From positions 1-32,923 of the forward strand of contig JAYTAM010000266.1 in the NCBI GenBank assembly GCA_043737505.1: DNA of 32,923 bases, in the 5' to 3' direction. The translations under genes were made by a program, and so were the position numbers. This stretch comes from Thermoanaerobaculia bacterium. Lineage in GTDB: Bacteria; Acidobacteriota; Thermoanaerobaculia; Multivoradales; JAGPDF01. Positions 8,333 through 31,845 of the stretch are shown here, piece after piece (within the stretch, counting starts at the first letter, position 1; each line of letters opens with the position of its first letter). Under the pieces are notes generated by a model. That model was not told the DNA's origin, searched no databases, and saw only the letters and a list, made by a program, of their open reading frames with translations.

Positions 8333-11300
8333 ATGGATGGCTGTCTGCCGGTGCTGGCCGTACTGGGTTTCATCTGCGTTGCCGCCTTTCTGCTGCGATT
8401 CTCCGGAAAGATCTCGGCGCTCGAGACCTGGGCGAACGAAACCAACGCCTGGCAGACGAGTGTCCTGGCCAAGCTGAAGGCACTCGAGGCCGAGGTCGCC
8501 CGTCTGCGCGAGGCCGCGGCGAAGCCGGCCGCGATCCTCGGCGCGGCGACGACAACCGTCGAAGCTCCGCCGATCTCCGCCGCACCGTCTCCCTCAGCCA
8601 GCTCGCCTGCGCTCGCAACGGCCGTTCCGCCCGCCGCGCCGCCAGCGGTGCCGGCCATGCCGCCAAGACCCGCCGCGCCGCTCGCTCGCGCCGCAGCTCC
8701 GCCGGCGCCGCCGAAGCCCGCTTCGCCGAGTCCGCCGTTTGCGAGCGGTGCCGCTGCGCAGCAAGCGGCGGCCAAGCCGCCGTTTGACTGGGAGGCGCTC
8801 GTCGGCGTGCGTCTGTTCTCGTGGATCGCCGGTGTCGCGCTGGTTCTCGCCGCGCTCTTCTTCCTCCGCTACTCGGTCGAGCAGGGCTGGCTCGGACCGG
8901 CGGTGCGCATGGCGATGGGTATCGCCACCGGTGTGGCGCTGCTCGTCGTCTGTGAGCTCAAGGCGGCGCGGCGGTACGCCGTCACCGCGAACGCCATGGA
9001 TGCCGCCGGCATCGCCATCCTCTTCGCTTCGTTCTACGCCGGGCACGCGCTCTGGCACCTCATCGGCGCCGCCCTGACCTTCGCCCTGCTCGCTCTGGTG
9101 GCGGCGGTCGCCGTCCTGCTCGCGATTCGCCGCGACTCGATCTTCATTGCGCTGCTCGGCCTGCTCGGCGGCTTCGCCACACCGGCGCTCCTCGCCACTG
9201 GCGAAGATCGACCGATCGGGCTGTTTACCTATCTCCTGCTGCTCAACGTCGGACTCACCTGGGTCGCCTATCGCAAGCGCTGGGCGGTGCTGCAGACGCT
9301 GGCGCTGGCCTTCACCGCGATCTACCAGGTCGGCTGGGCGGCGAAGTTCCTGACCGAGGCGAAGCTGCCGCTGGCGCTCGGAATCTTCGCCCTGTTCTCG
9401 CTGGTCGCCTTCGTCGCCCTGCTGGTGGCCGAGCGCGGGCGAAAGCGAGCGGCCGGGGCGTCCGACGCGGTTCGCCGTGCGAGCGACGACGACGAACCGA
9501 CGCTCTTCGAAGGGGCGACCTACCTGAGCGCCGGCGTGCCCCTGCTCTTCGCCGCCTATTTCGCCGCGGTGCCGGCTTACGGCGCGCACGCCGGCCTTCT
9601 CTTCGGCTTCCTCGCCCTGCTCGTCGCCGGGCTGTTCACCATCGCGACCTTTCGCGGGCCGGAAATGCTGCACCTGCTGGGCGGCGGAACGGCGATGCTG
9701 GTCGTCGGTCTCTGGCTCGGGCGCTCGTACAGCAGCAGCTTCTGGCCGCTGGTGCTCCTCCCGCTCGCCGGTTTCGCCGCCTTCTTCCTCGTTTCGCCGC
9801 TTCTGGCGCGGGCACTCGGGCGCCCGTTCTCCGGCTCCGGGCGGGCCGGCGCGCTCGCCGGCGCGGCGCTCCTCTTCGGCTTTCCGATGCTGCTCGCGCG
9901 CGAGCCGGCGACCGCCGATCCGCTGCTCGCGTTCGGGGTACTGCTCGGTCTGCTGTGCCTCGCCGCCTGGGCGGCGATCGCGCTCGAGGAGGGCCGGGTC
10001 TATCTCGTCGCCGCCTTCTTCGGCATCGCCAGCGAGGCCGTCTGGTCGGCGCTGCGGCTCACGCCGGAGCGCCGGCTCGAGGCTTACGCGCTCTACGGAG
10101 GTCTGGCGCTGTTCTATCTCGGCGTGCCGTTTCTCGCTCGGCGGCGCGGTAGGCGCCTGGCCCCCGAAGGGGGCGGAGCGCTACTGATGTTCGCCAGTAT
10201 CCTGCTGCTCTTCTTCCTCGCCAGCGGCCCGACCGCGTCTGGAAATCTCGTGGGGCTCACCCTCCTGCTGGCGCTGCTGAACCTCGGGCTCTTCCTCGAA
10301 GGGCGCGGCGGGCGGATGCCGCTCGTCGCCGTCGTCGGGTCGGTGGTGTCGTGGCTCGTGCTCGCCAAATGGTGGAGCGCGGTGCCGCTTGCGGAGCACG
10401 CCGTCGGCGCGCTTGCCGCGGTCGGCGGCTTCGGCGTGCTCACCGTCGTCGGCAGCGCAGTCCTCCTGGCGCGCCGCGCCACGGCGGAGCGCGGCGACGA
10501 AGCGCTCGGCATCCCCGACCAGGCGATCTGGGTCGGGCTGGTGGGCCACGCCTTCCTGCTCTTCGCCGCCAGCCGGACGGAGCTCTCGCTGCCGCCCTGG
10601 CCGCTCTTGGCCATCCTCGTGTTGCTCGACATCGCGCTGGCTCTGGCCGCGCTCAAGGCGAGGCGGGGACCGCTGCTCCTGGGAGCGCTCGCCGCCTCGC
10701 AGGCAGTCCTCGGCGTCTGGCTGGGCAGCGTGGACGGCGCCCCCTGGCCGCTCGTCGCCTTCGCCTCCGCGATCGGCATCGCCGCGCTCGGGCTCGGGGC
10801 GCTCGCGCTCGCGCCGCGTCTCGCCCAGGCGAACGAGACGACCGAACGCTTCGCGGTCGCAGCGGCGGTCGGTCTGTTCGGCGCCCAGGCGGTGGCGATC
10901 CTCGCGACACTGTCGGCCGGCGCGCCGGGGTTCCTCTGGCTCGCCGCCGGGACGGTCGCGCTGCTGGTCGCCGAACTCCGGCTGGGCGCCCGGCGCGACT
11001 GGGAAGGGCTCGCTCTCCTAGCCGTGGTGCCCGCCGTAGCGGCCGCTGCGGCCTTCGGGCGATTGCGCGCTCCGACCGATGTCGATCCCGGGGTGGTGCT
11101 CTGGTGGCAGAACCTTCAGTTCTCCTCTCTCTGGTGGCAGAACCTGCTCTTCGCGGCGCTCGTCTGGCTGCCGTTCCTCGGCGATGCGCTCGCGGTGGAC
11201 CTGCGCTCGCGCCGTGCGAACCGCTCGTTTCTCGCCGTGGTGCTGGCTGGCGGGGGCCTCTTCGTGGTCGCCCGCGAGGCGATGCTGCGCGGAGGGCTCG

Positions 11301-12160
11301 GTGGAGTGATCGGCATCCTGCCGGTCGTGCAGGCGCTGCTGCTCGCACCGCTCCTGGTGCGTCTCGTACGCCGCACCAGCTTCGCCGACATCCGGCAGCG
11401 GCAGAGCGGCGACGAGAGCGGGCGGCTGGCCCTGGTCGCCGGGGCGATGCTCGCTTTCGTCACGGTCGCCATTCCGATGCAGCTCGAGAAGCAGTGGATC
11501 ACGCTGGGCTGGGCGCTCCTGGGGGCGGCCCTCGCCTGGCTGCATCGCCGCGTACCGCATCCCGGGCCCGTCCTCTGGGCGGTCGCTCTCGAGCTTGCGG
11601 CCTTCGTGCGCCTGGCGTTGAACCCGGCGGTCCTCGCGTACCATCCGCGCCAGGGACCGCCGGTCCTCAACTGGTTCCTCTACTCCTATCTCGTGACGGC
11701 GCTCGCCATGTTCGCCGCCGCCTGGTGGCTGCGCGAGGCGCGCGTCGAAGGGTCGCCGTTCAAGATCGCGCCGGGCCTCGCCACCGGCGGAACGATCCTC
11801 CTCTTCCTGCTGTTGAACATCGAGATCGCCGACTTCTTCTCGACCGGCGAAACGCTGACGTTCGGATTCCTCGGCGGCAGGGCGGGCCTGCCCGAAGACC
11901 TCGCCTACACGATCGGCTGGGCGCTCTTCGCCATCGCCCTCCTCGTCGCCGGCCTTGTCGGCCGCCAGAAATCGGTGCGGATCTGCGCCATCGCGCTGCT
12001 AGCAGTGACCGTGATCAAGGCGTTCCTGCACGACACCTGGCGGCTCGGCGGCCTCTACAGGGTCGGCTCGCTCGTCGGGCTCGCGGTGAGTCTGGCGCTG
12101 GTTGCGCTGGTGCTGCAGAAGTTCGTCTTCCGCGCCGGCCTCGAAGAGCGCGAGAAGTAG
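8333..12160 (+). CDS. DUF2339-family large polytopic membrane protein
   Basis: N-terminal helix, coiled coil and Pro/Ala linker, then DWEALVGVRLFSWIAG, GGFATPALL and a C-terminal K.FL.D...L.GLYRV. About 30 hydrophobic segments. Confidence 0.82.
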   Translation: MDGCLPVLAVLGFICVAAFLLRFSGKISALETWANETNAWQTSVLAKLKALEAEVARLREAAAKPAAILGAATTTVEAPPISAAPSPSASSPALATAVPPAAPPAVPAMPPRPAAPLARAAAPPAPPKPASPSPPFASGAAAQQAAAKPPFDWEALVGVRLFSWIAGVALVLAALFFLRYSVEQGWLGPAVRMAMGIATGVALLVVCELKAARRYAVTANAMDAAGIAILFASFYAGHALWHLIGAALTFALLALVAAVAVLLAIRRDSIFIALLGLLGGFATPALLATGEDRPIGLFTYLLLLNVGLTWVAYRKRWAVLQTLALAFTAIYQVGWAAKFLTEAKLPLALGIFALFSLVAFVALLVAERGRKRAAGASDAVRRASDDDEPTLFEGATYLSAGVPLLFAAYFAAVPAYGAHAGLLFGFLALLVAGLFTIATFRGPEMLHLLGGGTAMLVVGLWLGRSYSSSFWPLVLLPLAGFAAFFLVSPLLARALGRPFSGSGRAGALAGAALLFGFPMLLAREPATADPLLAFGVLLGLLCLAAWAAIALEEGRVYLVAAFFGIASEAVWSALRLTPERRLEAYALYGGLALFYLGVPFLARRRGRRLAPEGGGALLMFASILLLFFLASGPTASGNLVGLTLLLALLNLGLFLEGRGGRMPLVAVVGSVVSWLVLAKWWSAVPLAEHAVGALAAVGGFGVLTVVGSAVLLARRATAERGDEALGIPDQAIWVGLVGHAFLLFAASRTELSLPPWPLLAILVLLDIALALAALKARRGPLLLGALAASQAVLGVWLGSVDGAPWPLVAFASAIGIAALGLGALALAPRLAQANETTERFAVAAAVGLFGAQAVAILATLSAGAPGFLWLAAGTVALLVAELRLGARRDWEGLALLAVVPAVAAAAAFGRLRAPTDVDPGVVLWWQNLQFSSLWWQNLLFAALVWLPFLGDALAVDLRSRRANRSFLAVVLAGGGLFVVAREAMLRGGLGGVIGILPVVQALLLAPLLVRLVRRTSFADIRQRQSGDESGRLALVAGAMLAFVTVAIPMQLEKQWITLGWALLGAALAWLHRRVPHPGPVLWAVALELAAFVRLALNPAVLAYHPRQGPPVLNWFLYSYLVTALAMFAAAWWLREARVEGSPFKIAPGLATGGTILLFLLLNIEIADFFSTGETLTFGFLGGRAGLPEDLAYTIGWALFAIALLVAGLVGRQKSVRICAIALLAVTVIKAFLHDTWRLGGLYRVGSLVGLAVSLALVALVLQKFVFRAGLEEREK
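11099..11145 (+). repeat. 17-bp direct repeat at 30-bp period (CTCTGGTGGCAGAACCT; LWWQNL twice)
   Basis: Exact copies at 11099-11115 and 11129-11145, both in frame. Confidence 0.85.
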
Positions 12161-12161
12161 C

Positions 12162-14318
12162 GTGCGCTGCCGCAACGCCAAGGGCTACTTGCTTCTCGCC
12201 GTCGGGCTCGCTGCCGGCGCTGTAGCGCGACCGGCTGGCGCGGCCGGCGACGGGTTCGCGTACGAGCGTGGGCTGCAACCGGGAGGCCGCGGGCCGAATC
12301 GGATCGCGCTCGACGAGCCGATGCTCACGCGCGCCATGCCGGTGCGTTACGCGGCCGGCTCCGCCCATGCCGCCGATGCCGCAGACGCCGCGCCGATCGG
12401 CGGACTCGAAGATCTGCGGCTCTTCGACGGCGCCGGTCGGGAGCTGCCGTATCTCCTCATGCTGCCGGCCGCGGCGCGCGAGCGCAGCCTGGAGGGGGCG
12501 CTCCTCGAGATCCCCCTTTCGAAGAGCGAGAGCGGGTTCGAAGCCGACCTGGGACAGGTCGAAAACGTCGATCGTCTGACCCTGCAGGGGCTTCCCTCAC
12601 CGCTTCTCAAGCGCTACAGGTTGGAAGGAAGCGGCGACCGCAAACACTGGGTCACGTTGATCGCCGAGGGAACACTCTTCGATCTGCCGGCGGAGGGGCT
12701 GCGGCTCCTGGCGGCAGATTTTCCCGCCGGCGCCTATCGCTATCTGCGCTGGACCTGGAACGATGCCTCCAGCGGGCGGGTGGCGCCGCCCACGTCGGCG
12801 CGCGCACGGCTGCTCGAACGCGCCGAACCGCCGCAGCCGACGACCGTTCGCCTGGAGGTAACGCGCCGTCCGAGCGAGCCGCGCGTCAGCCGGTTCCATC
12901 TGCGCCTGCCGGGTCGCGGCCTGCCGGTCGCGGCGCTGCTGCTCGAGGTCGGCCCCGGCGACCTGCTCCGTCGCGCCCGGGTCAGCGAACCGCGCCTCGT
13001 TGGCGCTGGGGGCTCCGGCGCCAGTGGCTCCAGTGGCTCCATTGGCTCCAGTGCCTCCGGCACCGTCGAGCCGGCGCCGCTCGGCGAGGCGGTGCTGCGG
13101 CGCTCCTCGCACGCCGGAGAGGTGGCAGCGGCGCTCACCATCGCGATCGAACCGCCACGCGAGACCGGTCTCGACCTCACCGTCGAGGACGGCGACAGCG
13201 GTTCGCTGCGCCTCGACGGGGTCGTTGCGCGCCTGCGGCCGCTGCCGTGGATCTACTTCGAGAGTCCCGACGGCGGGCCGGTCACGGCACGTTACGGCAG
13301 GCCTGGCGCAGCGGGACCCCGCTACGATCTCGAGGCGTCGCGCAGCGCTGCGGCGGTCGGGGTCGCCGCCTCCGCCCGCTGGGGTGAGCCCAGGATCACG
13401 AGCGGCGCGCAGCCGACAGCCCCGGGCGCCGCGGCGACACTCGGGACGCCCCAGCCGCCCGCAGGGGGGGCGCTGGCCACGGCCGGTTTCCGCTACGTGC
13501 GGAGGCTCGCGACGGTCGGCGAAGGACTGCAGCAGCTGCCGCTCGATGCGGCCGTGCTGGCGCATGCGCACGCGCTGGCCGATCTGCGGCTGGCGACAGC
13601 CGAAGATCGCCAGGTGCCGTATCTGCTCGAACGCCGCGCCGAGCCGCTGGAGCTCCGGCTCGAAATCCGGCCCGCAATGGCGCCCGCTCCGGCCACCGGC
13701 GGGAGCGGCGATGCTCCGGCCGGGAGGACGATTTCGCGCTACACGATCCAGCTCCCGGTCGCTGGGCTTCCGGAGTCGCGTCTCGCGATCCTGACCTCGG
13801 CGCGAGTCTTCGCGCGCGACGTCGTGGTGCGCACGGCAACTGCCAATCGAGCGACGGGCGCTGAGCGCTGGGCGACCGTGGCGCATCTCGCCTGGCGCCA
13901 CGCCGATCCCGAGCGCGAAGCGCCCGAGCTGGCGATCGATCTGCCGGCCCTCACCAGCGACCGGCTTCTTCTGGAAGTGGAGGAGGGAGACAACAGCCCG
14001 CTGCCGCTGGCGGGTGCCCGCCTCCTGCTGCCGTCGTGGCAGCTGCGCTTCTTCGGCACCGGGCAGGCGCTGCGCCTTCTCTACGGCGATTCCCGGCTCG
14101 CACCGCCCCGCTACGACCTGGCGCTGCTCGCGCCGCGCCTGGTCGGCGTCGAGGGCAGCGAGCTCGCTTTGCCGGAAGAGCAGAGGCTTTCGGCCGCAGT
14201 GGAGGCCGTGCGCTCGGGGATGTGGTTCTGGCTCGGGCTGGCCGGAGCGGTGCTCGTGCTTCTGGCCCTGCTGGTCCGCCTCTTGCGCGGCGAGCCGCCA
14301 GCGGCTGCGGCCTCGTAG
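12162..14318 (+). CDS. DUF3999-like exported protein with C-terminal membrane anchor, internally duplicated
   Basis: Signal-peptide-like N-terminus. Two copies each of DLRL...PYLL, (D/E)GD...L and PRYDL, then a C-terminal TM helix. It starts 1 nt after the DUF2339 stop, and this pairing is a recurring one. Confidence 0.7.
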   Translation: MRCRNAKGYLLLAVGLAAGAVARPAGAAGDGFAYERGLQPGGRGPNRIALDEPMLTRAMPVRYAAGSAHAADAADAAPIGGLEDLRLFDGAGRELPYLLMLPAAARERSLEGALLEIPLSKSESGFEADLGQVENVDRLTLQGLPSPLLKRYRLEGSGDRKHWVTLIAEGTLFDLPAEGLRLLAADFPAGAYRYLRWTWNDASSGRVAPPTSARARLLERAEPPQPTTVRLEVTRRPSEPRVSRFHLRLPGRGLPVAALLLEVGPGDLLRRARVSEPRLVGAGGSGASGSSGSIGSSASGTVEPAPLGEAVLRRSSHAGEVAAALTIAIEPPRETGLDLTVEDGDSGSLRLDGVVARLRPLPWIYFESPDGGPVTARYGRPGAAGPRYDLEASRSAAAVGVAASARWGEPRITSGAQPTAPGAAATLGTPQPPAGGALATAGFRYVRRLATVGEGLQQLPLDAAVLAHAHALADLRLATAEDRQVPYLLERRAEPLELRLEIRPAMAPAPATGGSGDAPAGRTISRYTIQLPVAGLPESRLAILTSARVFARDVVVRTATANRATGAERWATVAHLAWRHADPEREAPELAIDLPALTSDRLLLEVEEGDNSPLPLAGARLLLPSWQLRFFGTGQALRLLYGDSRLAPPRYDLALLAPRLVGVEGSELALPEEQRLSAAVEAVRSGMWFWLGLAGAVLVLLALLVRLLRGEPPAAAAS
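13017..13058 (+). repeat. 9-bp tandem micro-repeat (consensus GGCTCCAGT) encoding a Gly/Ser insert
   Basis: GGCGCCAGT GGCTCCAGT GGCTCCATT GGCTCCAGT GCCTCC. Confidence 0.8.
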
Positions 14319-18383: not shown

Positions 18384-18974
18384 TCAGCTACCGGCGGCCG
18401 GACTCTCGGGTTTCGCGGACAACGCCTCCTGAGCGAGCCGGCGCAGCTCGTCGATCGTCATTCCGCCGAGGCTGGCCAGGCGGTCGCCCTCGAACGTGGT
18501 CGAGAAGCGCATCGTCGCCGGATTGCCCATCATGAACACCAGAGAGTGCTGGGTGAGCGTGCGGTCGCCGCAGCCGCCGCCCGGGTAGTGGCTGAGCTCG
18601 TCGTATTCGTCGCCGGCTTTGTAGTAGAGGCGGACGCCCGGTTTCACCTTGAGGACCTCCTGCACGATCGCCTTGTGCACGCCGGCCTCGTCCTTCATCT
18701 CCAGGAGCAGAATCGCGCTCGCCAACCGGATCTTGTCCCGGATCGGACGGGCGCTGAAGTCGTTGTCGAATGCGGACTCAGAATCGTCCATCGCCCCGGC
18801 CGGCGTTCCGAAGGAGGAAACCGATCGGCTCGTCCGCTCCGTCGTTCCTCCGCTGGAATAACGCCACAAATTCCAATAGGAGGCGCCGTAGGTGAGCACC
18901 TGTAGGCCGAAGAAGCACCAGATTGCGATCGTGAGTCCGCGAATCGCCCGCGCGAGCTTGTCGCCGTTGTCCAT
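18384..18974 (-). CDS. Hypothetical protein with a single N-terminal TM helix
   Basis: Protein-like composition, hydrophobic GLTIAIWCFFGLQVL, and an extended -10-like element 6 nt upstream of the ATG. Confidence 0.65.
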   Translation of the reverse strand: MDNGDKLARAIRGLTIAIWCFFGLQVLTYGASYWNLWRYSSGGTTERTSRSVSSFGTPAGAMDDSESAFDNDFSARPIRDKIRLASAILLLEMKDEAGVHKAIVQEVLKVKPGVRLYYKAGDEYDELSHYPGGGCGDRTLTQHSLVFMMGNPATMRFSTTFEGDRLASLGGMTIDELRRLAQEALSAKPESPAAGS

Positions 18975-19051: not shown

Positions 19052-19060
19052 TGATAGGAT
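19052..19060 (+). promoter_or_regulatory. Extended -10-like element TGA-TAGGAT of the metal-efflux operon
   Basis: TGn plus TAnnnT, 7 nt before GTG 19068, with no Shine-Dalgarno sequence in between. Confidence 0.5.
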
Positions 19061-19067
19061 CCTGCGC

Positions 19068-19331
19068 GTGCGCAGATGGGCTTGGCTCGCGGTAGCGATC
19101 GTCGTGACCTTCGTCGGCGCGACGTTCGTCGATGACTGCGCGGCGGACGGCCCGTCGGAATGTCCGCCGGCCTGCCACTTCGCCTGCATCGACGGCTGCG
19201 CCGTCGCGCCGATAGAGACCGCGCGGCTCGTGCCGAGTGCAACTGAAGTGCGCAAGGAGCCCCCGGTGGAGGCCGCTTCGCGGCCCCTGGAGCTCGATTT
19301 CCCCCCCAAGCTGATCCCTCCCCGAGCCTGA
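19068..19331 (+). CDS. Small Cys/His-rich leader protein upstream of metal efflux genes (DUF2946/CzcI-like architecture)
   Basis: RR plus hydrophobic helix, ECPPACHFACIDGC, and C-terminal FPPKLIPPRA. It is the first gene of the tolC operon. Confidence 0.72.
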   Translation: MRRWAWLAVAIVVTFVGATFVDDCAADGPSECPPACHFACIDGCAVAPIETARLVPSATEVRKEPPVEAASRPLELDFPPKLIPPRA

Positions 19332-19337
19332 CCCCCG

Positions 19338-19396
19338 CTCCGGCTTCCGCCGGAGTTCGCTGGATGGCTGCCCTGCGCGCGTGTGGCGCGCGGGGC
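19338..19396 (+). promoter_or_regulatory. Two GC-rich hairpins between the leader ORF and tolC
   Basis: CTCCGGC-TTCC-GCCGGAG (19338-19355) and GCCCTGCGCGC-GTGTG-GCGCGCGGGGC (19370-19396, one G-U pair). Neither has a U-tract. Confidence 0.55.
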
Positions 19397-19428
19397 GCTC
19401 GGCCGATCGTGTCTACCTTGGGGGATGT

Positions 19429-20664
19429 ATGCGCCTTCCTGTGTTGATTTTTCTCGTCGCCGAGGCGACTGCGGCGACTGCCGCGCCCGCGGCGGCTGCC
19501 GAACTGACACTTGAAACGGTCGTCGCCGCCGCAAGACCGTCCGCCGAGCGGCTCGCGGCGGAGAGTTTCCTCACCGCCGCGGCGCGCGAGCTCTCGCTCT
19601 CCCGCGGCATCCTGCTCGAGGGCATGGCGGTGTCCGCCGAGGCGGGCCCGCGCCGCTCGCCCGACGGAGACGGCTCGGATTTCGCGCTCGGTCTCGAGCT
19701 GCCTCTGGCCGGCGACCGTACCGAGCGCGAAGCCGCGCTCGACTTCTTCGCCGAGGCGGAGAAAGTGCTCCCGGCCGCGGCCGACCTCGAAGCTGGCCTG
19801 GCGCTCTCGCTCGCCTACGTCGATGCCTGGGAGGCGACGGAGGGGCTGGTGCTCGCGCGGCGGCAGGAGACCAGCGTCGCGGACTGGCTCCAGGTGGTGG
19901 AGGCGCGAGTCGCTGCCGGGGCCGAAGCGCCCTATGAGACCTCACTCGTCGGCGCCGAGCTGGGGCTCGCTCGCCTGGCACTCGCCGAGGCGCTCGTGCA
20001 GGAGCAGATCGCCTGGAGCGAGCTCGCGGCGCGCGCGGCGGTGGGAGCGACGCCCGAGCGTCTCGCTGAACCGCTTTCGGCGAGCTCCGGGCGAAAAGCC
20101 GTAGAGGCCGGGAAGGCCGTCGAAAGCGTCCACCCTGTCTGGGCGCTCACGCGCGCCAGCGAGCTGCGGTCCGCACTCAGGCAGGCGCTCATCCGTCTCG
20201 ATGTCGCGCGCGGCGGGAGCCGCTGGTCGTTGCAAGCCACCGCGGCGCAGGAGGGCGAAGAGGACGTGGCGCGGCTCGGGCTCGGCTATCGTCTGCCGTT
20301 CGCCGGGCAGAATGCGGCGCGGGTGACGGCCCGGGATGCCGCCCTCGCCGAAGAGAGGCGCGGCGCCGAGCTCGAACGCGCCCGACTCGAAGGCCGGTTG
20401 CGCGGCGCCGAAGCGCGCGCCGGTGCGCTCGCCGCGGGGGTCGCCCCAGGAGTTGGGGCGCCTGCGACCCTCTCGCCGCTGGAGATCGAAGAGGCTCTCG
20501 TCGCGCTCGAGGCGCGGGTCACGGCCGGCCGCGATCGGCCTTCGGCGGTCCTGCCGCTCCGCCGTCAGCTGGTCGGCGCCCTCCTCACCGAGCTCGCAGC
20601 GCGCGCCGCGGAGGCGCGAGCCGTATTCCTGATCCAGACCCTGAAAGCGGAGATTTCGCAATGA
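19429..20664 (+). CDS. TolC/CzcC-like outer membrane efflux protein (divergent)
   Basis: Signal peptide, G.ELPL, R..AGAEA..E and GYRLPF patterns, and position before the adaptor and RND genes. Confidence 0.75.
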   Translation: MRLPVLIFLVAEATAATAAPAAAAELTLETVVAAARPSAERLAAESFLTAAARELSLSRGILLEGMAVSAEAGPRRSPDGDGSDFALGLELPLAGDRTEREAALDFFAEAEKVLPAAADLEAGLALSLAYVDAWEATEGLVLARRQETSVADWLQVVEARVAAGAEAPYETSLVGAELGLARLALAEALVQEQIAWSELAARAAVGATPERLAEPLSASSGRKAVEAGKAVESVHPVWALTRASELRSALRQALIRLDVARGGSRWSLQATAAQEGEEDVARLGLGYRLPFAGQNAARVTARDAALAEERRGAELERARLEGRLRGAEARAGALAAGVAPGVGAPATLSPLEIEEALVALEARVTAGRDRPSAVLPLRRQLVGALLTELAARAAEARAVFLIQTLKAEISQ

Positions 20665-21896
20665 CTTCGAGCTCCTTTCGTTTCCTGTCCCTGATCGCGC
20701 TTCTATGCACCACGCTCGCCTGCGGCGCCAAGCAGGACGAACACGCCCATGCCGAGGAAGGCGAAGAGCATCACGATGAGGCCGGCGGTGAAGCCACCGC
20801 CCCGGCGAAGGAAGGCGCCCCGGAAGGCGCAGGGCACGAGGAATCCGGGCACGAAGAAGCCGGGCACGAGGAGGGCGAAGGCGCGGCGGGGGAAGTCCGT
20901 GTGCCGCTCGAGGGTGTCCGCGGCCTGGCGTTCGTGCGCGTCGGCGAGCCGCAGGAAGAGGGCGTCTGGGCTCCGGCCGAGGCGGTCTCGGATTCGGCTG
21001 CCGTCGCCATCGTGACGGCACCGGCTGCGGGGATCGTCCGCCGGTTGCTGGTGCGCCCAGGAGAGACCGTACGGGAAGGGCAGGCCGTCGCGGAACTGGC
21101 GAGCGCCGAGATCGCCGACCTCGCGGCGCGACACCGTTCGGCCCAGGCGCAAGCGGCGCGGACGCAGGTCGAGCTCGAGCGGGAACGGACGCTGCTCGCC
21201 GCCCGCGCGACCTCCCGGCACGAGCTCGAAGCCGCTGAGGCTGCCCATGCTGCCGCGGGCGCCGAGGTGGTGGCGGCGCGCCAGTCGCTTGCCGCGCGCG
21301 GCGTGAATCCCGGCACGTTCGCCGGCACCGCCCTCCTCAGGGCGCCGGTCGCCGGCACGCTCGAGCGCTGGGAGATCGCGCTCGGGCAGGGAGTCGAAGC
21401 GGGGACCTCTCTCGCCACGATCCGCGATCGCCTGGCGTCGCGCGTGCGAGTCGAGCTCGCGCCACCCGGGCCGACGGAGTGGATAGTCGGCTCGGCGAGT
21501 GAGGTCCGCCGCGGCGACGGCACCCGATGGCCGGCGACGGTCGAAGGGCTGCCCGCAGGTCTGACCTCCGAGACCCGGCGCTACCCCTACATTCTGCGGC
21601 TCGAAGGCGAGCCGCTTCCGGCCCCAGGCACTCCCCTCGAGGTGCGTGTACCGCTGACGCGCGGCATCGTGTTGCCGCAGGAGGCGCTGCAGCTCGTCGA
21701 GGGGGACTGGGGCGTCTTCGTCCGCGAGGGGGGCGAGGCCGTCTTCAGAAAAGTTCGACGCGGAGCCGAGCTGGGAGGAGACGTTCTGGTTCTGGAGGGG
21801 ATCGAACCGGGTGTCGAAGTGGCGACGGCCGGCGCCTACCTCCTGCGCCCCCTGTGGATGAAGCGCATGGGCGGGGGCGAGCAGCATGCGCACTGA
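20661..21896 (+). CDS. RND periplasmic adaptor (CzcB/CusB-like), lipoprotein with His/Glu-rich N-terminus
   Basis: Lipobox LACG, lipoyl motifs (APAAGIV..LLVRPGETV..GQ, RAPVAG), and C-terminal GEQHAH. The start overlaps the tolC stop (ATGA). Confidence 0.87.
   Translation: MTSSSFRFLSLIALLCTTLACGAKQDEHAHAEEGEEHHDEAGGEATAPAKEGAPEGAGHEESGHEEAGHEEGEGAAGEVRVPLEGVRGLAFVRVGEPQEEGVWAPAEAVSDSAAVAIVTAPAAGIVRRLLVRPGETVREGQAVAELASAEIADLAARHRSAQAQAARTQVELERERTLLAARATSRHELEAAEAAHAAAGAEVVAARQSLAARGVNPGTFAGTALLRAPVAGTLERWEIALGQGVEAGTSLATIRDRLASRVRVELAPPGPTEWIVGSASEVRRGDGTRWPATVEGLPAGLTSETRRYPYILRLEGEPLPAPGTPLEVRVPLTRGIVLPQEALQLVEGDWGVFVREGGEAVFRKVRRGAELGGDVLVLEGIEPGVEVATAGAYLLRPLWMKRMGGGEQHAH
20832..20873 (+). 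repeat. 15-bp tandem repeat encoding GHEE three times
   Basis: GGGCACGAGGAATCC GGGCACGAAGAAGCC GGGCACGAGGAG. Confidence 0.8.
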
Positions 21897-24800
21897 GGCG
21901 CAGCACGACCAGCACTTGGTGGATGTCGAGGGCGGCCGGCCCTCGATCTTTTTTCGCTGGTTCCGGCGCATCCTGCCGCTGCGCGGATGGGTCATCGGGC
22001 TTTCGCTGGTCTTCGGCATCGTCGGAATGGTGGTCTACGGCGGTCTGCGCCGCGACCTGTTCCCCGACCTGACGCTGCCGACGTTGCAGCTCCTGATTCA
22101 GAGTCCCGGCCGCTCGGCGCCGGAGATCGAGCTCGCGGTCGCTCAGCCCGTCGAGCAGGCGATGCTGGGGCTGCCCGGTGTACGGCGCGTAACCTCGACG
22201 CTGCAGCCCGGCATCGCCCAGATCGTTATCGCCTTCGAGAGCGACAGCGATCCGTGGCGCGCCCGCCAGCTGGTGGGGGAGAAGCTCGCGACACTGTTGG
22301 GCGGCTTCCCCGAAGGCACCGAGGCGCCCCTGGTGACCAGCGCCGCCGGGCGCTTGCAGGAGATTCAGGAGCTGGTGCTCGAAGGGCCGGCGATCGATCC
22401 GATGACGCTCCGGGATCAGGCGGTGCGGGTATTGGTCCCGCGCCTTCAGTCGGTCCCCGGGGTGGCGCGCATCGAGCTTCTGGGCGGCGCGGAGCGGACG
22501 GTCGAGATCAGCCTGGTTGCCGAGCGCCTGCGGCTGGCTGGAGCCTCGCTCGCCCAGGTGCTCGAAGCGCTCGAAGGCAGCGAGCGCGACTCCGGCGCAG
22601 GCCTGCTCGAGGTGCGCGACAAGATGTGGCTGGTCAGCGTCGCGACGCTCGCTGCGACCAACGAGGACCTCCGGCGGATCCCGGTGCACACGGCGCACGG
22701 GCTGGTGACCCTGGGCGACCTCGCGGAGATTCGGGACGCGCCGGGATTCCGCCTCGGCTTGGCCCGCTATGGCGGGTTCGAGGCGGTGTCGATGCGGGTG
22801 GTGAAGCAGCCCGCCGCGGAGACGCTGTCGACGGCACGGCGGGTGCGCGCGCTGCTGCCGGAGCTGCAGAAGGGGCTGCCTCAGGGCATGAAGCTCGACC
22901 TCTTCTACGACCAGGGCGAGCTCGTCGACCACGCCCTCTCGGGGGTCACCACGGCGCTCCTCATCGGTGCGGCTTTCGTCGCCGTCGTCCTCGTGCTGCT
23001 GCTGGGAAGCCTGCGCGGGGCGCTGGTCGTACTCGCCGTCCTGCCGCTGTCGACCGTCGGCGCGGCGATACCGTTGATGCTCCTCGGGCACGGGCTGAAT
23101 GCGATGACCCTCGGAGGCCTGGCGATCGCCGTCGGCATCTTGGTCGATGCCAGTGTGATCATGGTCGAGAACCTCGTCCATCGGCTCGAATCCCATCCCC
23201 ACGAGGCCGGCGACCAGCGCGCCCGGCGTTCGATCCTCTCGGCGGCCGCGGCCGAGGTGGCGGTTCCCATCGTCACCGCAGTCGCCGTCATCCTGGCGGT
23301 TTTCGTTCCGCTCCTGGCGCTGCCCGGAGTCGCCGGCCGGCTTTACGCGCCGCTCGCCGTCGCGGTGGCGTCGGCGATGACGATCAGCCTCGCCCTCTCC
23401 TTCACGCTGGTTCCGGTGCTGGTCGATCGCTTTCTCCCGCCGGGGACTGCGCTCGCCGAACCGCGATTCGTCACCTGGATCAAGGAGGTCTACCGGCCGG
23501 GTCTCGATTGGGCGCTCCGCCACGGCCTGGCGGTCCAGGTCATCGCCTTGCTCGTCGCCCTGCCTTCGTTCTGGCTCGCGACCCGTCTCGACACTCAGTT
23601 CCTGCCCGAGCTCGACGAGGGGGCGTTGATGGTGCAGACGCTCCTGCCCTCCGACCTCAGCGTTGCGGCGGTGGACGAAGCCAACGTCGGCTTCGAAGCG
23701 AGCCTGGTGGAGATCGAGGGAGTGTGCTCGGTCTATCGCCGCAGCGGGCGGGGCGAGATCACCGAAGACCCGATGCCGCATTCGATATCGGACATCCTGA
23801 TCGTCCTCGAACCGGGAACCGACTCGGACGCGGTGGGTGCCGAGATCGAAGAGATCGGCGAAGCGGCTCCGTTCGGGGTCGAAGTGACGACGCCGATGGG
23901 GATGCGGATCGCCGAGGGGATCGGCGGCAGTCCGGCCGACATCGAAGTCGAGCTCTACGCTGCCGACCTCGAGCCTCTGCGCGCGCGCGAGGCGGAGATC
24001 CGGCGCGAGATCGCCGAGCTCGAGGGCGTCGTATCGGTGATTGTCGACTCCGGCACTGCGCTCCCGGCCTGGCGCATCGTGCCCGACGAGGATGCTTTGC
24101 GCCGCCTCGATGTGCCGCGAGCGCTGCTGGCTCTGACTGCCCGCGCCGCGTTGCAGGGGATCCCACTCGCGCCCCGCTTCGAGGGGATCCAGCGCATCGA
24201 TCGCGTCGTGCGGTTTCCCAACGACGGACGGCTGACCGGCGCGGCGCTCGCGCGCCTGCCCCTGATCGTGGAAGAGGGGCGGGTCATCGAGCTCGGACAG
24301 GTCGCGCGGGTGGAGGAGAGCTCCTCGCCCGGGCTGTTGCGGCGCAAGAACGCGCAACGGCGGCTCGGCTTCCGGGTCCAGACGGCCGGGGATCTCGGGG
24401 GCACGGCGAAACGGATCGAGCAGAGGCTCGCGGCGATGAAGCTGCCAAGCGGGACGACCGTGGGGCTATCGGGCCAGATCGAGGAAGCACGCGCCACGCA
24501 ACGTCGCCTTCTCGTCGCCTCGACTGTGGCACTCGGTCTGGTCTTCTTCCTTCTGCTGCTCGCTCTCGGCTCCGTGCGCGAGGTGGCCATCGTGTTCGCG
24601 ACGCTGCCGCTCGCGTTCGCGGGCGGACTGGTGGCGCTGGCGCTCGCCGGCGAGAGCTGGAATGCGAGCTCGATCGTCGGGGTGATCGGTCTGTTCGGCG
24701 TCGCGGTGCAGAACAGTCTGGTCCTGATCACCCAGACGAAGGGGTTTCTCGGCCACGGTCTACCGCTCGAGGCTGCGGTGCGCGAAGCCTCGCTCGGACG

Positions 24801-25029
24801 GGTGCGCCCCAAGCTGATGACCGCCGGCGCGGCGATCCTCGGACTGACACCGATGCTCTTCGGCCTCGGAGGCTCGGAGCTCGAGCGCCCGCTCGCCGTC
24901 GTCATGGTCGGCGGACTGGTCACTTCGACCATTTTCACGCTGCTGGTTCTGCCGGCGGTCTACGCTCATTTCGGCGCTCCGGCGCGGAAGGCGCGACAGC
25001 AGGATGCCTCACCCGCAGGAGCGCGGTGA
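21886..25029 (+). CDS. Heavy-metal efflux RND permease (CusA/CzcA family)
   Basis: DLFPDL, NAMTLGGLAIAVGILVDASVIMVEN, FLPELDEG and RVRPKLMT. 1047 aa. Confidence 0.92.
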   Translation: MRTEAQHDQHLVDVEGGRPSIFFRWFRRILPLRGWVIGLSLVFGIVGMVVYGGLRRDLFPDLTLPTLQLLIQSPGRSAPEIELAVAQPVEQAMLGLPGVRRVTSTLQPGIAQIVIAFESDSDPWRARQLVGEKLATLLGGFPEGTEAPLVTSAAGRLQEIQELVLEGPAIDPMTLRDQAVRVLVPRLQSVPGVARIELLGGAERTVEISLVAERLRLAGASLAQVLEALEGSERDSGAGLLEVRDKMWLVSVATLAATNEDLRRIPVHTAHGLVTLGDLAEIRDAPGFRLGLARYGGFEAVSMRVVKQPAAETLSTARRVRALLPELQKGLPQGMKLDLFYDQGELVDHALSGVTTALLIGAAFVAVVLVLLLGSLRGALVVLAVLPLSTVGAAIPLMLLGHGLNAMTLGGLAIAVGILVDASVIMVENLVHRLESHPHEAGDQRARRSILSAAAAEVAVPIVTAVAVILAVFVPLLALPGVAGRLYAPLAVAVASAMTISLALSFTLVPVLVDRFLPPGTALAEPRFVTWIKEVYRPGLDWALRHGLAVQVIALLVALPSFWLATRLDTQFLPELDEGALMVQTLLPSDLSVAAVDEANVGFEASLVEIEGVCSVYRRSGRGEITEDPMPHSISDILIVLEPGTDSDAVGAEIEEIGEAAPFGVEVTTPMGMRIAEGIGGSPADIEVELYAADLEPLRAREAEIRREIAELEGVVSVIVDSGTALPAWRIVPDEDALRRLDVPRALLALTARAALQGIPLAPRFEGIQRIDRVVRFPNDGRLTGAALARLPLIVEEGRVIELGQVARVEESSSPGLLRRKNAQRRLGFRVQTAGDLGGTAKRIEQRLAAMKLPSGTTVGLSGQIEEARATQRRLLVASTVALGLVFFLLLLALGSVREVAIVFATLPLAFAGGLVALALAGESWNASSIVGVIGLFGVAVQNSLVLITQTKGFLGHGLPLEAAVREASLGRVRPKLMTAGAAILGLTPMLFGLGGSELERPLAVVMVGGLVTSTIFTLLVLPAVYAHFGAPARKARQQDASPAGAR

Positions 25030-25062: not shown

Positions 25063-27228
25063 ATGGCTGTAGAGCCAACTCGGGCGTTCCGCGTCGCCGG
25101 CATGGATTGCGCCGAGGAGATCGCTCTTCTCCGGCGCGGGGTGGGGCCGATCGTCGGCGGTGAAGAAAATCTCGGCTTCGATCTGCTGCGCGGCAAGATG
25201 ACCGTCGCGGCGGCGACCCGTCCGGTCTCCGACGCGGCGATCCTGGCGGCGGTAAAAAGTACGGGCCTCTCGGCGGAGGTCTGGCGCGCCGAAGGGGACG
25301 GCGGCGCCACCGAACGTCTGCGGCGGCGACGCCTCGTCGCGACCGTCGTCTCCGGATCCGCGACGCTCAGCGGATTTCTGCTCCATGCAGCGCTCGCCGG
25401 CGGTTTCGGCGCCGCGCTCGGCAGCGAAGGCATGGGCGGCTCGGCGCCGGTGCCGCTCGCCGTGCGGTGGATCTATGCCGTCGGCATCGTGGCGGGCCTG
25501 ATCACTGTCGCGCCGAAGGCGTGGCAGTCGTTGCGCCGGCTGCGACCGGACATGAACCTTCTGATGACGATCGCGGTCTCCGGCGCCGTCGTGATCGGCG
25601 AATGGTTCGAAGCCGGGACGGTCGCCTTCCTGTTCTCCTTCTCGCTCGCCCTCGAGGCCTGGAGCATCGGCCGCGCGCGCAAGGCCATCGCCAAGCTCCT
25701 CGACCTCGCGCCGCCAACCGCACGGCTCGTGGAGGCGGGCGGGGAGCGCGAAGTACACCCTTCGGAGGTCGAGGTGGGGGCGCGGATCGCCATTCGGCCC
25801 GGCGAGCGCATCCCGCTCGACGGACGGATCGTCGCCGGCAGCTCCTCCCTCAATCAGGCACCGATCACCGGCGAGAGCCGGCCGGTCGACAAGGGGGTCG
25901 GGGACGACGTGTTCGCAGGTTCGATCAACGGCTCGGGGGCGCTCGAGTTCGAGACCACCGCCCGGGCCGAAGCGACGATGCTGGCGAAAATCCTGCGCCT
26001 CGTCGAAGAGGCGCAGGCGCGGCGCTCGCCCTCCGAACGCTGGGTGGACAGGTTCGCCGCCATCTATACGCCGTGCGTCTTCGGCGCGGCGATCGCCGTG
26101 GCCATTCTGCCGCCCCTGTTGACCGGAGCGAGCTTCGCCGAGTGGGGCTATCAGGCGCTGGTCCTGCTGGTCATCGGCTGCCCGTGTGCGCTCGTCGTCT
26201 CGACGCCGGTAGCGATCGTCGCCGGGCTTTCCGCTGCGGCGCGCCATGGCGTCCTGGTGAAGGGCGGGGCCTTCCTCGAGGCTCCCGCGCGACTGCGCGC
26301 CTTCGCTTTCGACAAAACCGGCACGCTGACTCACGGTCGGCCAGCGGTCGTCGAAGTCGTCGCCCTCTCGGGCCACGACGACCGGGAGGTTCTCGAGCGG
26401 CTGGCGGCGCTCGAGGCGAACAGCGAGCACCCGCTCGCCGCGGCCATCCGCGAGTACGCCGCGGAGAAGGGCATCTCGGTCGCGGCGGCGACCGATTTTC
26501 AGGCGATCCAGGGGAAGGGCGCCGTCGGGCTCATCGCAGGGCGGCAGTTCTGGGTCGGCTCGCACCGCTTCCTCGAAGAGCGCGGGCAGGAGACGCCCGA
26601 GGTCCACGCGAAGCTCGAGTCGATCTCGACCTCGGGACGGTCCGCCGTAGTCCTCGGCAACGAGAGTCACGTTTGCGGCATCGTCGCGGTCGCCGACAGC
26701 GTGCGCCCGAATGCGAAGGCCGCGCTCGAAGAGCTGCGCCGGCTGGGGATCGAAACCACCATCATGTTGACCGGCGACAATCAGGGAACCGCGGAGGCAA
26801 TCGGCCGGGAGGCCGGGGTCACCGAGGTCCGAGCCGAGCTGCTGCCGGACGAGAAAGTCGCTGCGATCGAGGCTCTGGTCGCGAAGTACGGCAAGGTTGC
26901 CATGGTCGGCGACGGCATCAACGACGCGCCGGCCCTCGCCAGCGCGAGCCTGGGTATCGCGATGGGCGGCGGAGGCTCGGACGCCGCCATCGAGACCGCC
27001 GATGTGGCGCTGCTTTCGGACGATCTCTCGCGCCTCCCGTGGCTGGTGCGCCACTCGCGCAAGACCCTGGCGATCATCCGTCAGAACATCGCCTTCTCGC
27101 TGGCGATCAAGGCGACGTTCGTCGTACTGACCTTTCTCGGCTTGGCCTCGCTCTGGGGCGCGATCGCCGCCGACATGGGCGCCACCCTGCTGGTCGTCGC
27201 CAACTCGCTGCGGCTGCTTCGTCTATGA
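25063..27228 (+). CDS. cadA: Heavy-metal P1B-type ATPase, Zn/Cd/Pb (CadA/ZntA-like)
   Basis: GMDCAEE N-terminal HMA domain, TGES, CPC, DKTGT, SEHPL, GDGINDAP, and the TM Lys (AIKA) plus ADMG typical of P1B-2 pumps. Confidence 0.92.
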   Translation: MAVEPTRAFRVAGMDCAEEIALLRRGVGPIVGGEENLGFDLLRGKMTVAAATRPVSDAAILAAVKSTGLSAEVWRAEGDGGATERLRRRRLVATVVSGSATLSGFLLHAALAGGFGAALGSEGMGGSAPVPLAVRWIYAVGIVAGLITVAPKAWQSLRRLRPDMNLLMTIAVSGAVVIGEWFEAGTVAFLFSFSLALEAWSIGRARKAIAKLLDLAPPTARLVEAGGEREVHPSEVEVGARIAIRPGERIPLDGRIVAGSSSLNQAPITGESRPVDKGVGDDVFAGSINGSGALEFETTARAEATMLAKILRLVEEAQARRSPSERWVDRFAAIYTPCVFGAAIAVAILPPLLTGASFAEWGYQALVLLVIGCPCALVVSTPVAIVAGLSAAARHGVLVKGGAFLEAPARLRAFAFDKTGTLTHGRPAVVEVVALSGHDDREVLERLAALEANSEHPLAAAIREYAAEKGISVAAATDFQAIQGKGAVGLIAGRQFWVGSHRFLEERGQETPEVHAKLESISTSGRSAVVLGNESHVCGIVAVADSVRPNAKAALEELRRLGIETTIMLTGDNQGTAEAIGREAGVTEVRAELLPDEKVAAIEALVAKYGKVAMVGDGINDAPALASASLGIAMGGGGSDAAIETADVALLSDDLSRLPWLVRHSRKTLAIIRQNIAFSLAIKATFVVLTFLGLASLWGAIAADMGATLLVVANSLRLLRL

Positions 27229-31168: not shown

Positions 31169-31845
31169 GCCGTGCCGCCGGGTTCCAGAATGTAGCCCTC
31201 TCCGCGTCGGGTGCGGATCAGCTCCGGCAGGCCAGCGTGGGAGAGCTTCCGCCGCAGCGAGTAGATCATCACGTCGAGGACGTTGCTTTCGGCGCCACTC
31301 TCGAATTCGTACATCTTCTCCCACAACTCTCGACGGGTGACGAGCTCGCCGGCCCGCCTCGTGAGCAGCTCCAGCAGCGCGTATTCGCGAGGAGAGACGG
31401 CGATCTCCCGGGCTTCCGCGTAGACGCGGCGTGCCGCTGTTTCGAGGCGCAGGCCGCCGCAGCTGAGAATTGGATTCTTCTGCGAGAAACCTCGGCGCAC
31501 CAGGGCGCGGATGCGGGCCAGAAGCTCTTCGAAGGAGAACGGCTTCACCAGGTAGTCATCGGCACCCAGGTCGAGACCGTGAATTCGGTCCTCCACCAGA
31601 TCGCGCGCCGAGAGAATGAGGACGTGCTGCTGGTTCCCTCGCTCACGCAGTTTCTGCAGAACCGAGAAGCCGTCGATCCCGGGCAGCATCACGTCGAGGA
31701 GCACGACGTCGTATTCGTTCTGGGTTGCCAGCCAGAACCCCTCTTCGCCATCGGTCGCCGCATCGATCACGAAGCCGAGCTTGCGAAAACCTCGCTGCAG
31801 CGAGCGTTGCAGTTTTTCCGAGTCCTCGATCAACAATAGCTTCAC
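31165..31845 (-). CDS. OmpR/PhoB-family response regulator
   Basis: LLIED, LLDVMLPG, GADDYLVKPF and winged helix IRTRRGEGY. Confidence 0.93.
   Translation of the reverse strand: MKLLLIEDSEKLQRSLQRGFRKLGFVIDAATDGEEGFWLATQNEYDVVLLDVMLPGIDGFSVLQKLRERGNQQHVLILSARDLVEDRIHGLDLGADDYLVKPFSFEELLARIRALVRRGFSQKNPILSCGGLRLETAARRVYAEAREIAVSPREYALLELLTRRAGELVTRRELWEKMYEFESGAESNVLDVMIYSLRRKLSHAGLPELIRTRRGEGYILEPGGTA

Follow-up and report, generated by a model that had tools for sequence, protein, structure and literature searches.

A conserved CutF-like small peptide as the probable metal-sensing leader of a heavy-metal efflux operon in a Thermoanaerobaculia bacterium

The DNA analysed here, referred to as the window, is a stretch of 32,923 nucleotides of contig JAYTAM010000266.1 (assembly GCA_043737505.1) of a Thermoanaerobaculia bacterium, phylum Acidobacteriota. 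On its forward strand, a short open reading frame (ORF) of 87 amino acids (aa) is located directly in front of genes for a heavy-metal efflux system, namely an outer-membrane factor (OMF), a periplasmic adaptor, a pump of the resistance-nodulation-division (RND) type and a P1B-type ATPase. A sequence-only reading of this DNA had proposed that the small ORF, in the following called the leader, encodes a nascent-chain metal sensor placed in front of exporters. The leader starts with a GTG codon at 19068 and ends with TGA at 19329-19331. Its translation, VRRWAWLAVAIVVTFVGATFVDDCAADGPSECPPACHFACIDGCAVAP...FPPKLIPPRA-TGA, contains everything that had been listed for it, i.e. 87 aa, a signal-like helix, the residues C24, C32, C36, H37, C40 and C44, and a C-terminal end rich in proline. 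The last cysteine had been placed 35 to 40 residues before the Pro-Pro pairs, which agrees with the distances counted from C44 (35/36 residues to P79/P80, 40/41 to P84/P85). The leader and the adjoining RNA elements, all of them on the forward strand, are as follows; evidence is given in brackets.

19056-19059, + strand: AGGA, a Shine-Dalgarno (SD)-like sequence 8 nt 5′ of the leader GTG (sequence reading)
19068-19331, + strand: leader ORF with 87 codons and TGA, encoding a small, putatively exported peptide of the CutF-like kind (ORF listing, translation, relatives, ratio of nonsynonymous to synonymous substitutions, dN/dS)
19068-19130, + strand: residues 1-21, RR and hydrophobic helix, with V16-G17-A18 as possible signal-peptidase site (AlphaFold2, AF2; -3/-1 rule applied by eye)
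19137-19199, + strand: residues 24-44, Cys/His cluster C-x7-CPPxCHxxCxDGC comprising three consecutive CxxxC (conserved columns; dN/dS 0.09-0.17)
19200-19301, + strand: residues 45-78, spacer of fixed length and variable sequence (distances in 60 sequences; dN/dS; predicted local distance difference test, pLDDT, 61-69)
19302-19328, + strand: residues 79-87, PPKLIPPRA, proline-rich putative arrest motif with the stop one residue after PPR (conserved columns)
19332-19428, + strand: intergenic region of 97 nt (RNA folds)
19332-19336, + strand: C-run
19337-19356, + strand: hairpin H1
19370-19396, + strand: hairpin H2
19420-19425, + strand: SD sequence GGGGGA

The GTG start codon of the leader aligns with the methionine of MRRW or MRKW in the homologues. 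Judged by eye, the N-terminus consists of RR, 15 uncharged and mostly hydrophobic residues and V-G-A, and it would thus form a Sec signal peptide or an uncleaved anchor. When the family alignment was supplied to AF2, a helix from residue 2 to 21 was the sole part predicted with confidence (pLDDT 87-95), the rest of the peptide being almost devoid of secondary structure (pLDDT 61-69). The G+C content around the leader is approximately 70% and many ORFs overlap on both strands, among them antisense ORFs of 279 aa and 154 aa. For this reason, it was questionable whether the small ORF is real. A Pfam scan of the antisense ORFs over the leader did not reveal any family. The dN/dS values of the leader amounted to 0.24 for three close sequences and to 0.16 for nine sequences of a second clade. 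Segment by segment, they were 0.08-0.17 for the Cys cluster and the C-terminus, and 0.67 and 0.22 for the linker in the two clades. Moreover, the third positions of the conserved proline codons vary among the relatives. It can be concluded from the low dN/dS values and the variable third positions that selection acts on the peptide. The leader is a conserved gene under purifying selection.

Besides the window protein, 12 relatives with identities of 60-81% were detected by a word-indexed metagenome search (13 at E<=0.01 out of 16 candidates). A profile search of 1.84 billion proteins, represented by their clusters, gave 32 matches at E<=1e-3, of which 12 also passed E<=1e-10. Very long, unrelated Cys-rich proteins accounted for two of the 32 and were set aside; nearly all of the remaining matches have 86-90 aa. 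Most family members range from 86 to 91 aa. In an alignment of 40 sequences (A2), in which the identity to the window peptide goes down to 22-35%, C24, H37, C44, P84 and P85 are invariant, while C32, C36, C40, D42, G43, P80 and R86 are conserved in at least 90%. The distance from the invariant histidine to the C-terminal PP pair was determined in 60 distinct sequences and is 47 residues in 31, 48 in 25 and 46 in two of them, with other values in the last two. The linker between these positions is free in sequence among the family members. In 53 of the 60 sequences, exactly one residue separates PP[R/K/Q] from the stop codon. A spacer of fixed length and free sequence, together with a stop one residue past PPR, is hard to reconcile with a folded protein, and the precision of both is what a nascent-chain device gauged by the ribosome tunnel and the translocon would show. 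Conservation of the Cys cluster, the PP motif and their spacing in front of related operons, on which the idea of a leader peptide had been made to depend, was found for all three.

Clear matches were obtained in three of 41 close relatives, own genome included, and in four of 401 sampled genomes of the class. When 401 genomes were sampled from the phylum, 20 had a clear match, and all but two of these belong to a single family (f51, 18 genomes). One relative bears the name Holophagaceae, and several complete genomes of a Holophagae-like clade carry the leader family. In this sister clade, the tail of the peptide reads E-P-E-K-[D/E]-P-P-[R/K]-x-stop. Neighbours in the ESM Atlas are clusters without a name, labelled Acidobacteriota, Methylomirabilota and Rokuibacteriota (Rokubacteria); the nearest named cluster by ESM features is DUF6660, with a score of 0.94 but a low overlap of 116 shared features. 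Two groups of variants were noticed. In two loci (L036, L037) and in protein P0043, most cysteines of the cluster are replaced by histidine (e.g. DHCH...H...H..C.DDC), while the spacer and the tail EPEKAPPR[A/G]-stop are kept, which hints at another metal specificity. A second related subfamily was seen in five loci (L038, L044-L047) of the Holophagae-like genomes G745, G664, G637, G449 and G477. Its members are longer on the N-terminal side, carry CHFFCNHGC as their motif and end in [Q/R]Px[K/E/T]APPR[A/M/F]LA-TGA with three residues after PPR, and each of them precedes a TolC-like ORF as judged by eye.

Most of the loci came from genome searches, and scans of genome contigs and of metagenome contigs gave one locus each. 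The counts given for loci rest on 22 loci in which the small ORF was delimited by a regular expression. Viewed by eye and left outside the counts were the loci L032, L034-L037 and L043, positive with the hidden Markov model (HMM), and the five loci of the second subfamily; locus L039 (genome G070), with a TGA within the match, is likewise outside. A homologue of the window OMF is situated directly downstream of the leader in 21 of the 22 loci, and the 22nd has a gene matching Pfam OEP at this position. In 20 of 21 loci, leader and OMF gene are separated by 67-125 nt, the exception having an intergenic region of 188 nt. All ten larger loci show the order leader, OMF, adaptor and RND pump; in eight of them the leader was seen by tblastn, in the other two via HMM. 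An ATPase gene on the same strand follows in three of the ten, one of these with a partial match only. The genes of the window that belong to the efflux operon or may bear on its regulation are:

19429-20664, + strand: OMF (TolC/CusC-like), 411 aa with signal peptide (AF2/Foldseek; Pfam OEP in homologues)
20661-21896, + strand: periplasmic adaptor of the CzcB/CusB type, His-rich at both termini (TIGR01730, TIGR00999)
21886-25029, + strand: CusA/CzcA-family heavy-metal RND pump, overlapping the adaptor gene by 11 nt (TIGR00914; CusA and ZneA in the PDB)
25063-27228, + strand: heavy-metal ATPase of the P1B type, located 34 nt past the RND gene (TIGR01525)
29699-31845, - strand: heavy-metal-type sensor kinase and response regulator, limits approximate, listed ORFs overlapping (TIGR01386, TIGR01387)

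The ATG of the OMF gene at 19429 is 97 nt away from the leader stop. Sequence searches of Pfam (including OEP), NCBIfam and the PDB gave no match for the window OMF. The AF2 model (pLDDT 82) was similar by Foldseek to CmeC, TolC, CusC and SilC with E values down to 6e-12 and TM-scores of about 0.6, and two of the OMF homologues reach Pfam OEP. The protein is too divergent for sequence searches and was identified by its predicted fold and by the Pfam matches of its homologues. The adaptor gene starts within the OMF stop (ATGA), and its product scored 99.9 bits with TIGR01730, which is over the cut-off, and 98.8 bits with the CzcB/NccB model TIGR00999, which is under it. Its N-terminal stretch is unusually rich in His and Glu (HAHAEEGEEHHDE...HEESGHEEAGHEEGEG) and its C-terminus reads GGGEQHAH; these His-rich ends are probably extra metal-binding tails. 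For the RND pump, TIGR00914 was the top match with 581 bits, yet under its cut-off. Thus, an OMF, an adaptor and an RND pump of the heavy-metal efflux type are encoded together in one operon.

As to the metal, the evidence looks mixed. The ATPase reached 602 bits with TIGR01525 and 562 bits with the Zn/Cd/Hg/Pb model, compared to 381 bits with the CopA model, and by these scores it looks like the Zn/Cd/Pb type. By contrast, transmembrane helix 4 of the RND pump, AVGILVDASVIMVEN, is CusA-like. In the PDB, CusA (327 bits) and ZneA (312 bits) matched the pump about equally well. The positions aligned with two methionines of the CusA methionine triad, M573 and M623, are occupied by Q and I in the window pump.

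A MerR, ArsR or CsoR gene adjacent to the operon had been denied by the sequence-only reading, and none was found among the ORFs scanned. Farther off, some 2.5 kb downstream of the ATPase gene's 3′ end and on the opposite strand, the two-component pair is encoded, a possible transcriptional layer. TIGR01386 (158 bits) and TIGR01387 (228 bits) were its top matches, both under the NCBIfam cut-offs. In locus L050, such a pair lies upstream of the leader, at a distance of about 4.4 kb; it is not a constant neighbour. On the other side of the leader, a divergent gene (18384-18974, - strand) codes for a protein of 196 aa without Pfam or NCBIfam family. Since a homologue with 50% identity is found in the metagenome locus L010 at a distance of 4.6 kb on the upstream side of the leader, this neighbour is not tightly linked to it. 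The region 8333-14318, farther upstream in the window, encodes a pair of unknown function, namely a DUF2339 membrane protein of 1275 aa and, after it, a DUF3999 protein.

Folds of the 97-nt intergenic region of the window (z -3.05 and -2.18; -58.6 kcal/mol over 104 nt) predicted two GC hairpins, H1 and H2, which recur in close relatives. The SD sequence GGGGGA is predicted to pair with CCCCC just past the leader stop or with CCCCCCCAAG of codons 78-81. In 20 loci, the SD sequence is mostly paired by prediction, its unpaired probability being 0.11-0.33. RNAalifold analysis of 15 Holophagae-like loci suggested that the last codons and the stop (GGGCCU) pair with the SD sequence (AGGYCC) around a conserved GC hairpin. 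In this closing helix, 92% of the cells pair and five pairs change on both sides, a result reached by nine of 500 shuffles, while slid controls pair at 35-60%. A search of Rfam with the intergenic region yielded no family, only a miRNA model at E 0.35, and scans of the window region for consensus promoters and terminators gave no sites. A distant locus (L003/L012, G038:C3) has a single hairpin straight after the TAG stop and UUUUCU behind it; this resembles an intrinsic terminator or attenuator, not a stem that masks the SD sequence.

It was then important where the leader family stands in relation to named families. Pfam and NCBIfam searches with the leader peptide did not assign it to a family, the sole match, SCIFF at E 0.14, being noise. 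Its identity as a SCIFF peptide, and hence as a ribosomally synthesized and post-translationally modified peptide, was dropped because the score is below noise and no radical S-adenosylmethionine gene was found among the ORFs scanned. A search of PDB sequences with a leader profile returned nothing at E<=10, and with a profile of alignment A2 searched against proteins of similar length, no returned protein carried a Pfam label. HMM searches against DUF2946, CzcI and DUF6660 had been suggested; in a Pfam scan at E<=10, in which the HMMER filters remove most matches above E ~0.1, none of the 40 family members matched any of the three. The scan gave scattered weak matches, to DUF7544 in eight members, to PRIMA1 in three and to others in one or two. 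Pfam DUF2946 (PF11162) did not match the leader at E<=1, and the leader was absent from the genome-wide DUF2946 matches at E<=10. DUF2946 proper is rare in the phylum, three of 301 genomes being over the cut-off. The local examples number four, one of them slightly below the cut-off and three over it, and have CxxC and RAPP or RGPP. In an hhalign comparison with these four acidobacterial proteins, the leader family was aligned over the signal peptide only, at 10% probability. The own genome contains a second small ORF (L016, C74:4319-4534, - strand) at a contig end, with a weak match to DUF2946 (16 bits, E 0.08). CATC, about 45 residues and RGPPAA-stop give it a CruR-like pattern, and directly behind it an exported protein of 487 aa and of unknown family is encoded; because of this pattern, the genome may carry both leader types.

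A system to which the leader can be compared closely is CutF of Rhodobacter capsulatus, described as an exported peptide of small size that carries a Sec signal and, in addition, CxxxC, from which about 45 residues lead to the C-terminal motif P109EPEGPPPRL118-stop (PMC9973294; bioRxiv 10.1101/2025.02.05.636593). According to these descriptions, the stem-loop in which the SD sequence of cutO is hidden melts when copper induces stalling; the C-terminal motif is required for regulation, and CutF acts in cis, depending on Sec export and on elongation factor P. Ozturk et al. (mBio 2023, PMC9973294) list 5,334 CutF-like proteins in 29 clusters and report that their genes most often precede an OEP gene of an RND system. 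The word "Acidobacteri" does not occur in the main text of that paper; its supplementary cluster lists may include the leader family. With 87 aa, the leader is below the 150 aa given for CutF-like proteins. It contains the prolines P79P80 and P84P85, PP being invariant in A2, and it is followed after 97 nt by the OMF gene. Like CutF, it begins with a hydrophobic sequence, which in the leader may be of the Sec type, has CxxxC and about 40-45 residues up to the proline motif, and is separated by a short structured intergenic region from a metal-homeostasis gene in the same orientation. The tails follow one pattern, EPEGPPPRL-stop in CutF, EPExxPPRx-stop in the sister clade and PxxxPPRx-stop in the window. 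Differences concern the cysteines (four in CutF, two of them in a single CxxxC; five plus one histidine in the leader), the prolines (PPP in CutF, PP in the window) and the next gene, which is a multicopper oxidase gene in Rhodobacter, whereas here an OMF gene heads an RND and P1B-ATPase operon. Unlike CutF, the leader family is not detected by Pfam DUF2946, it belongs to the phylum Acidobacteriota and its metal may not be copper.

Several traits which the sequence-only reading had regarded as new appear in another light through this comparison. The arrest motif is indeed not RAPP, but the tail matches PEPEGPPPRL-stop and is therefore the known CutF motif. A metal logic reverse to that of CruR and a position in front of exporters are already described for CutF-like proteins (PMC9973294). 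The proposal of a nascent-chain metal sensor as such fits the comparative evidence of spacing, PP[R/K/Q]-x-stop, adjoining efflux gene and hairpin region, but such a sensor would differ less from known systems than had been stated. By its architecture and motif, the leader family is most likely to be filed as CutF-like and not as a member of DUF2946.

Taken together, we consider it probable, with moderate confidence, that the 87-aa ORF encodes a CutF-like, cis-acting leader peptide, which probably senses metal during its synthesis and export. By analogy with CutF, we infer as follows how the leader would be exported, bind metal and stall its ribosome, which direction the response would take and what its output on the RNA would be. 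The N-terminal signal sequence would take the nascent chain into SecYEG. With the ribosome at the C-terminal P-x-x-x-PPR-x-stop, the Cys/His cluster, 40-60 residues back, would just be out on the periplasmic side. Sensing just outside the exit tunnel in the cytoplasm does not agree with this, as the CutF model has the periplasmic side of SecY during export. A thiophilic metal bound in the cluster might abolish the pull or folding that otherwise releases the slow Pro-Pro step, and the ribosome would linger at the end of the ORF. There, it would disturb the 97-nt intergenic RNA with its two GC hairpins closed by pairing of the SD sequence with C-runs at the 3′ end of the leader. The OMF gene would then be translated, the overlapping adaptor and RND genes would follow by coupling, and perhaps the P1B ATPase gene too. 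In favour of this mechanism, the distances from C44 and C40 to P84 (40 and 44 residues) are close to the approximately 45 aa in CutF.

Some observations weigh against it. The window has PPR, not the stronger PPP of CutF, and the CutF motif alone is reported not to have stalled in a LepB reporter (PMC9973294; bioRxiv 10.1101/2025.02.05.636593). Sequence homology to DUF2946 was not detectable by Pfam or hhalign. Since the comparison with CutF was made by its described architecture and printed motif, the resemblance may be convergent. The nearby heavy-metal-type two-component system could explain regulation without a leader. On the RNA level, the columns of the closing helix are constrained by coding and by the SD sequence, and the structure, being derived from that very alignment, favours itself. 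In RNAduplex calculations, the footprint of the stalled ribosome was the ORF window pairing best with the SD sequence in four of 21 loci and among the top three in six of 21 (mean ΔG of the footprint-SD duplex -12.2 vs -10.3 kcal/mol). A ribosome modelled in the last 42 nt raised the mean SD accessibility from 0.28 to 0.33-0.38, and that of the window from 0.20 to at most 0.30. Hence, RNA-level support for SD unmasking is weak, and the output step, be it translation, termination or mRNA stability, is for this reason a matter of inference.

The comparison can be extended to further systems. CruR (Bp2923) of Bordetella pertussis, a DUF2946 protein, is described to have CXXC and RAPP with 45 intervening residues; copper relieves its stalling, and it works independently of the signal peptide, acts through Rho and controls an uptake transporter (PMC9426467). 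Both CruR and the leader are upstream ORFs of metal-homeostasis operons with a signal-like N-terminus, a thiol motif, a C-terminal proline-containing arrest motif (putative in the leader) and a motif spacing constant within 1-2 residues. Beyond the helix, both are unstructured, by prediction in the case of the leader and as reported for CruR (PMC9426467). What separates them is that the window peptide has neither CXXC nor RAPP, but CxxxC spacing and PPRA. SecM, MifM and VemP share with the leader the export or membrane insertion, a force-tuned C-terminal arrest and the exposure of the next SD sequence, as outlined in PMC9973294. They monitor the secretion machinery and not metal, use unrelated arrest motifs and are without a Cys cluster. 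CzcI of Cupriavidus and DUF6660 of Bacteroidota are small as well, combine a signal or transmembrane helix with Cys/His and are encoded by the first gene of heavy-metal RND operons; CzcI differs by being described without a C-terminal proline motif (PMC9973294).

The last-named proteins lead to another explanation, which we regard as unlikely. The leader might be a stable, exported or anchored small metal-binding protein that acts in trans with the pump, comparable to CusF or CzcI as a periplasmic metallochaperone or an accessory subunit, PPRx being a tag for protein interaction or sorting instead of an arrest motif. This would suit the conserved Cys/His cluster and the N-terminal hydrophobic helix, the constant vicinity of efflux genes, the weak outcome of the RNA tests for SD unmasking and the statement that CzcI-like relatives without the proline motif may act differently (PMC9973294). 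A trans-acting protein is, however, difficult to bring in line with a spacer that is fixed in length, free in sequence and predicted to be unstructured, or with a stop codon that in 53 of 60 sequences comes exactly one residue behind PP[R/K/Q]. The pattern at the C-terminus matches the functionally required motif of CutF, and mature CutF and CruR are described as undetectable or short-lived.

A leader of the same type might also have another output, namely Rho- or hairpin-dependent termination or an effect on mRNA stability instead of SD access, or metal might relieve the arrest. CruR acts through Rho and its stalling is relieved by copper (PMC9426467), the hairpin right after the stop with UUUUCU in L003 is terminator-like, and modelling of SD accessibility gave weak results. 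We nevertheless judge this quite improbable. The window lacks a consensus terminator, its GC-rich intergenic region is strongly structured (-58.6 kcal/mol, 104 nt), unlike an unstructured rut site, the motif is of the CutF type and not RAPP, and a metal-relieved arrest would turn the exporter off in the presence of metal. Finally, a chance ORF in DNA of 70% G+C with many overlapping ORFs on both strands, or conservation owed to RNA or the opposite strand, is extremely improbable in view of dN/dS values of 0.16-0.24, synonymous variation in conserved proline codons, Cys, His and Pro positions kept by 60 distinct homologues across 30% identity, and antisense ORFs without Pfam family.

Beyond the interpretation of the leader as a CutF-like peptide, a more far-reaching idea is conceivable but doubtful. 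The tail P-E-x-x-P-P-R-x-stop might be a portable, phylum-spanning arrest module, perhaps independently joined to unrelated sensor heads. In Acidobacteriota, it might serve as the main switch of a complete OMF-adaptor-RND-P1B ATPase system. Its signal would then be a divalent thiophilic metal (Zn/Cd/Pb) instead of copper, and no dedicated transcription factor would take part. The head may in this case be the cluster of five Cys and one His, with the His-rich and CHFFCNHGC variants in sister genomes.

To our knowledge, transmembrane metal sensing by a nascent exported leader is known experimentally only for Rhodobacter CutF, the opposite logic being realized in Bordetella CruR. If the interpretation as a CutF-like leader is true, such sensing reaches the Acidobacteriota, a family invisible to Pfam and a whole tripartite RND system together with a P1B ATPase. 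The near-identical C-terminal pattern and the one-residue precision of spacer and stop would then be a natural data set on the essential features of the arrest module, and the Cys-to-His variants in sister genomes would be a handle on metal specificity. For annotation, it follows that the operon is probably regulated by what would otherwise be listed as a "hypothetical protein" of 87 aa.

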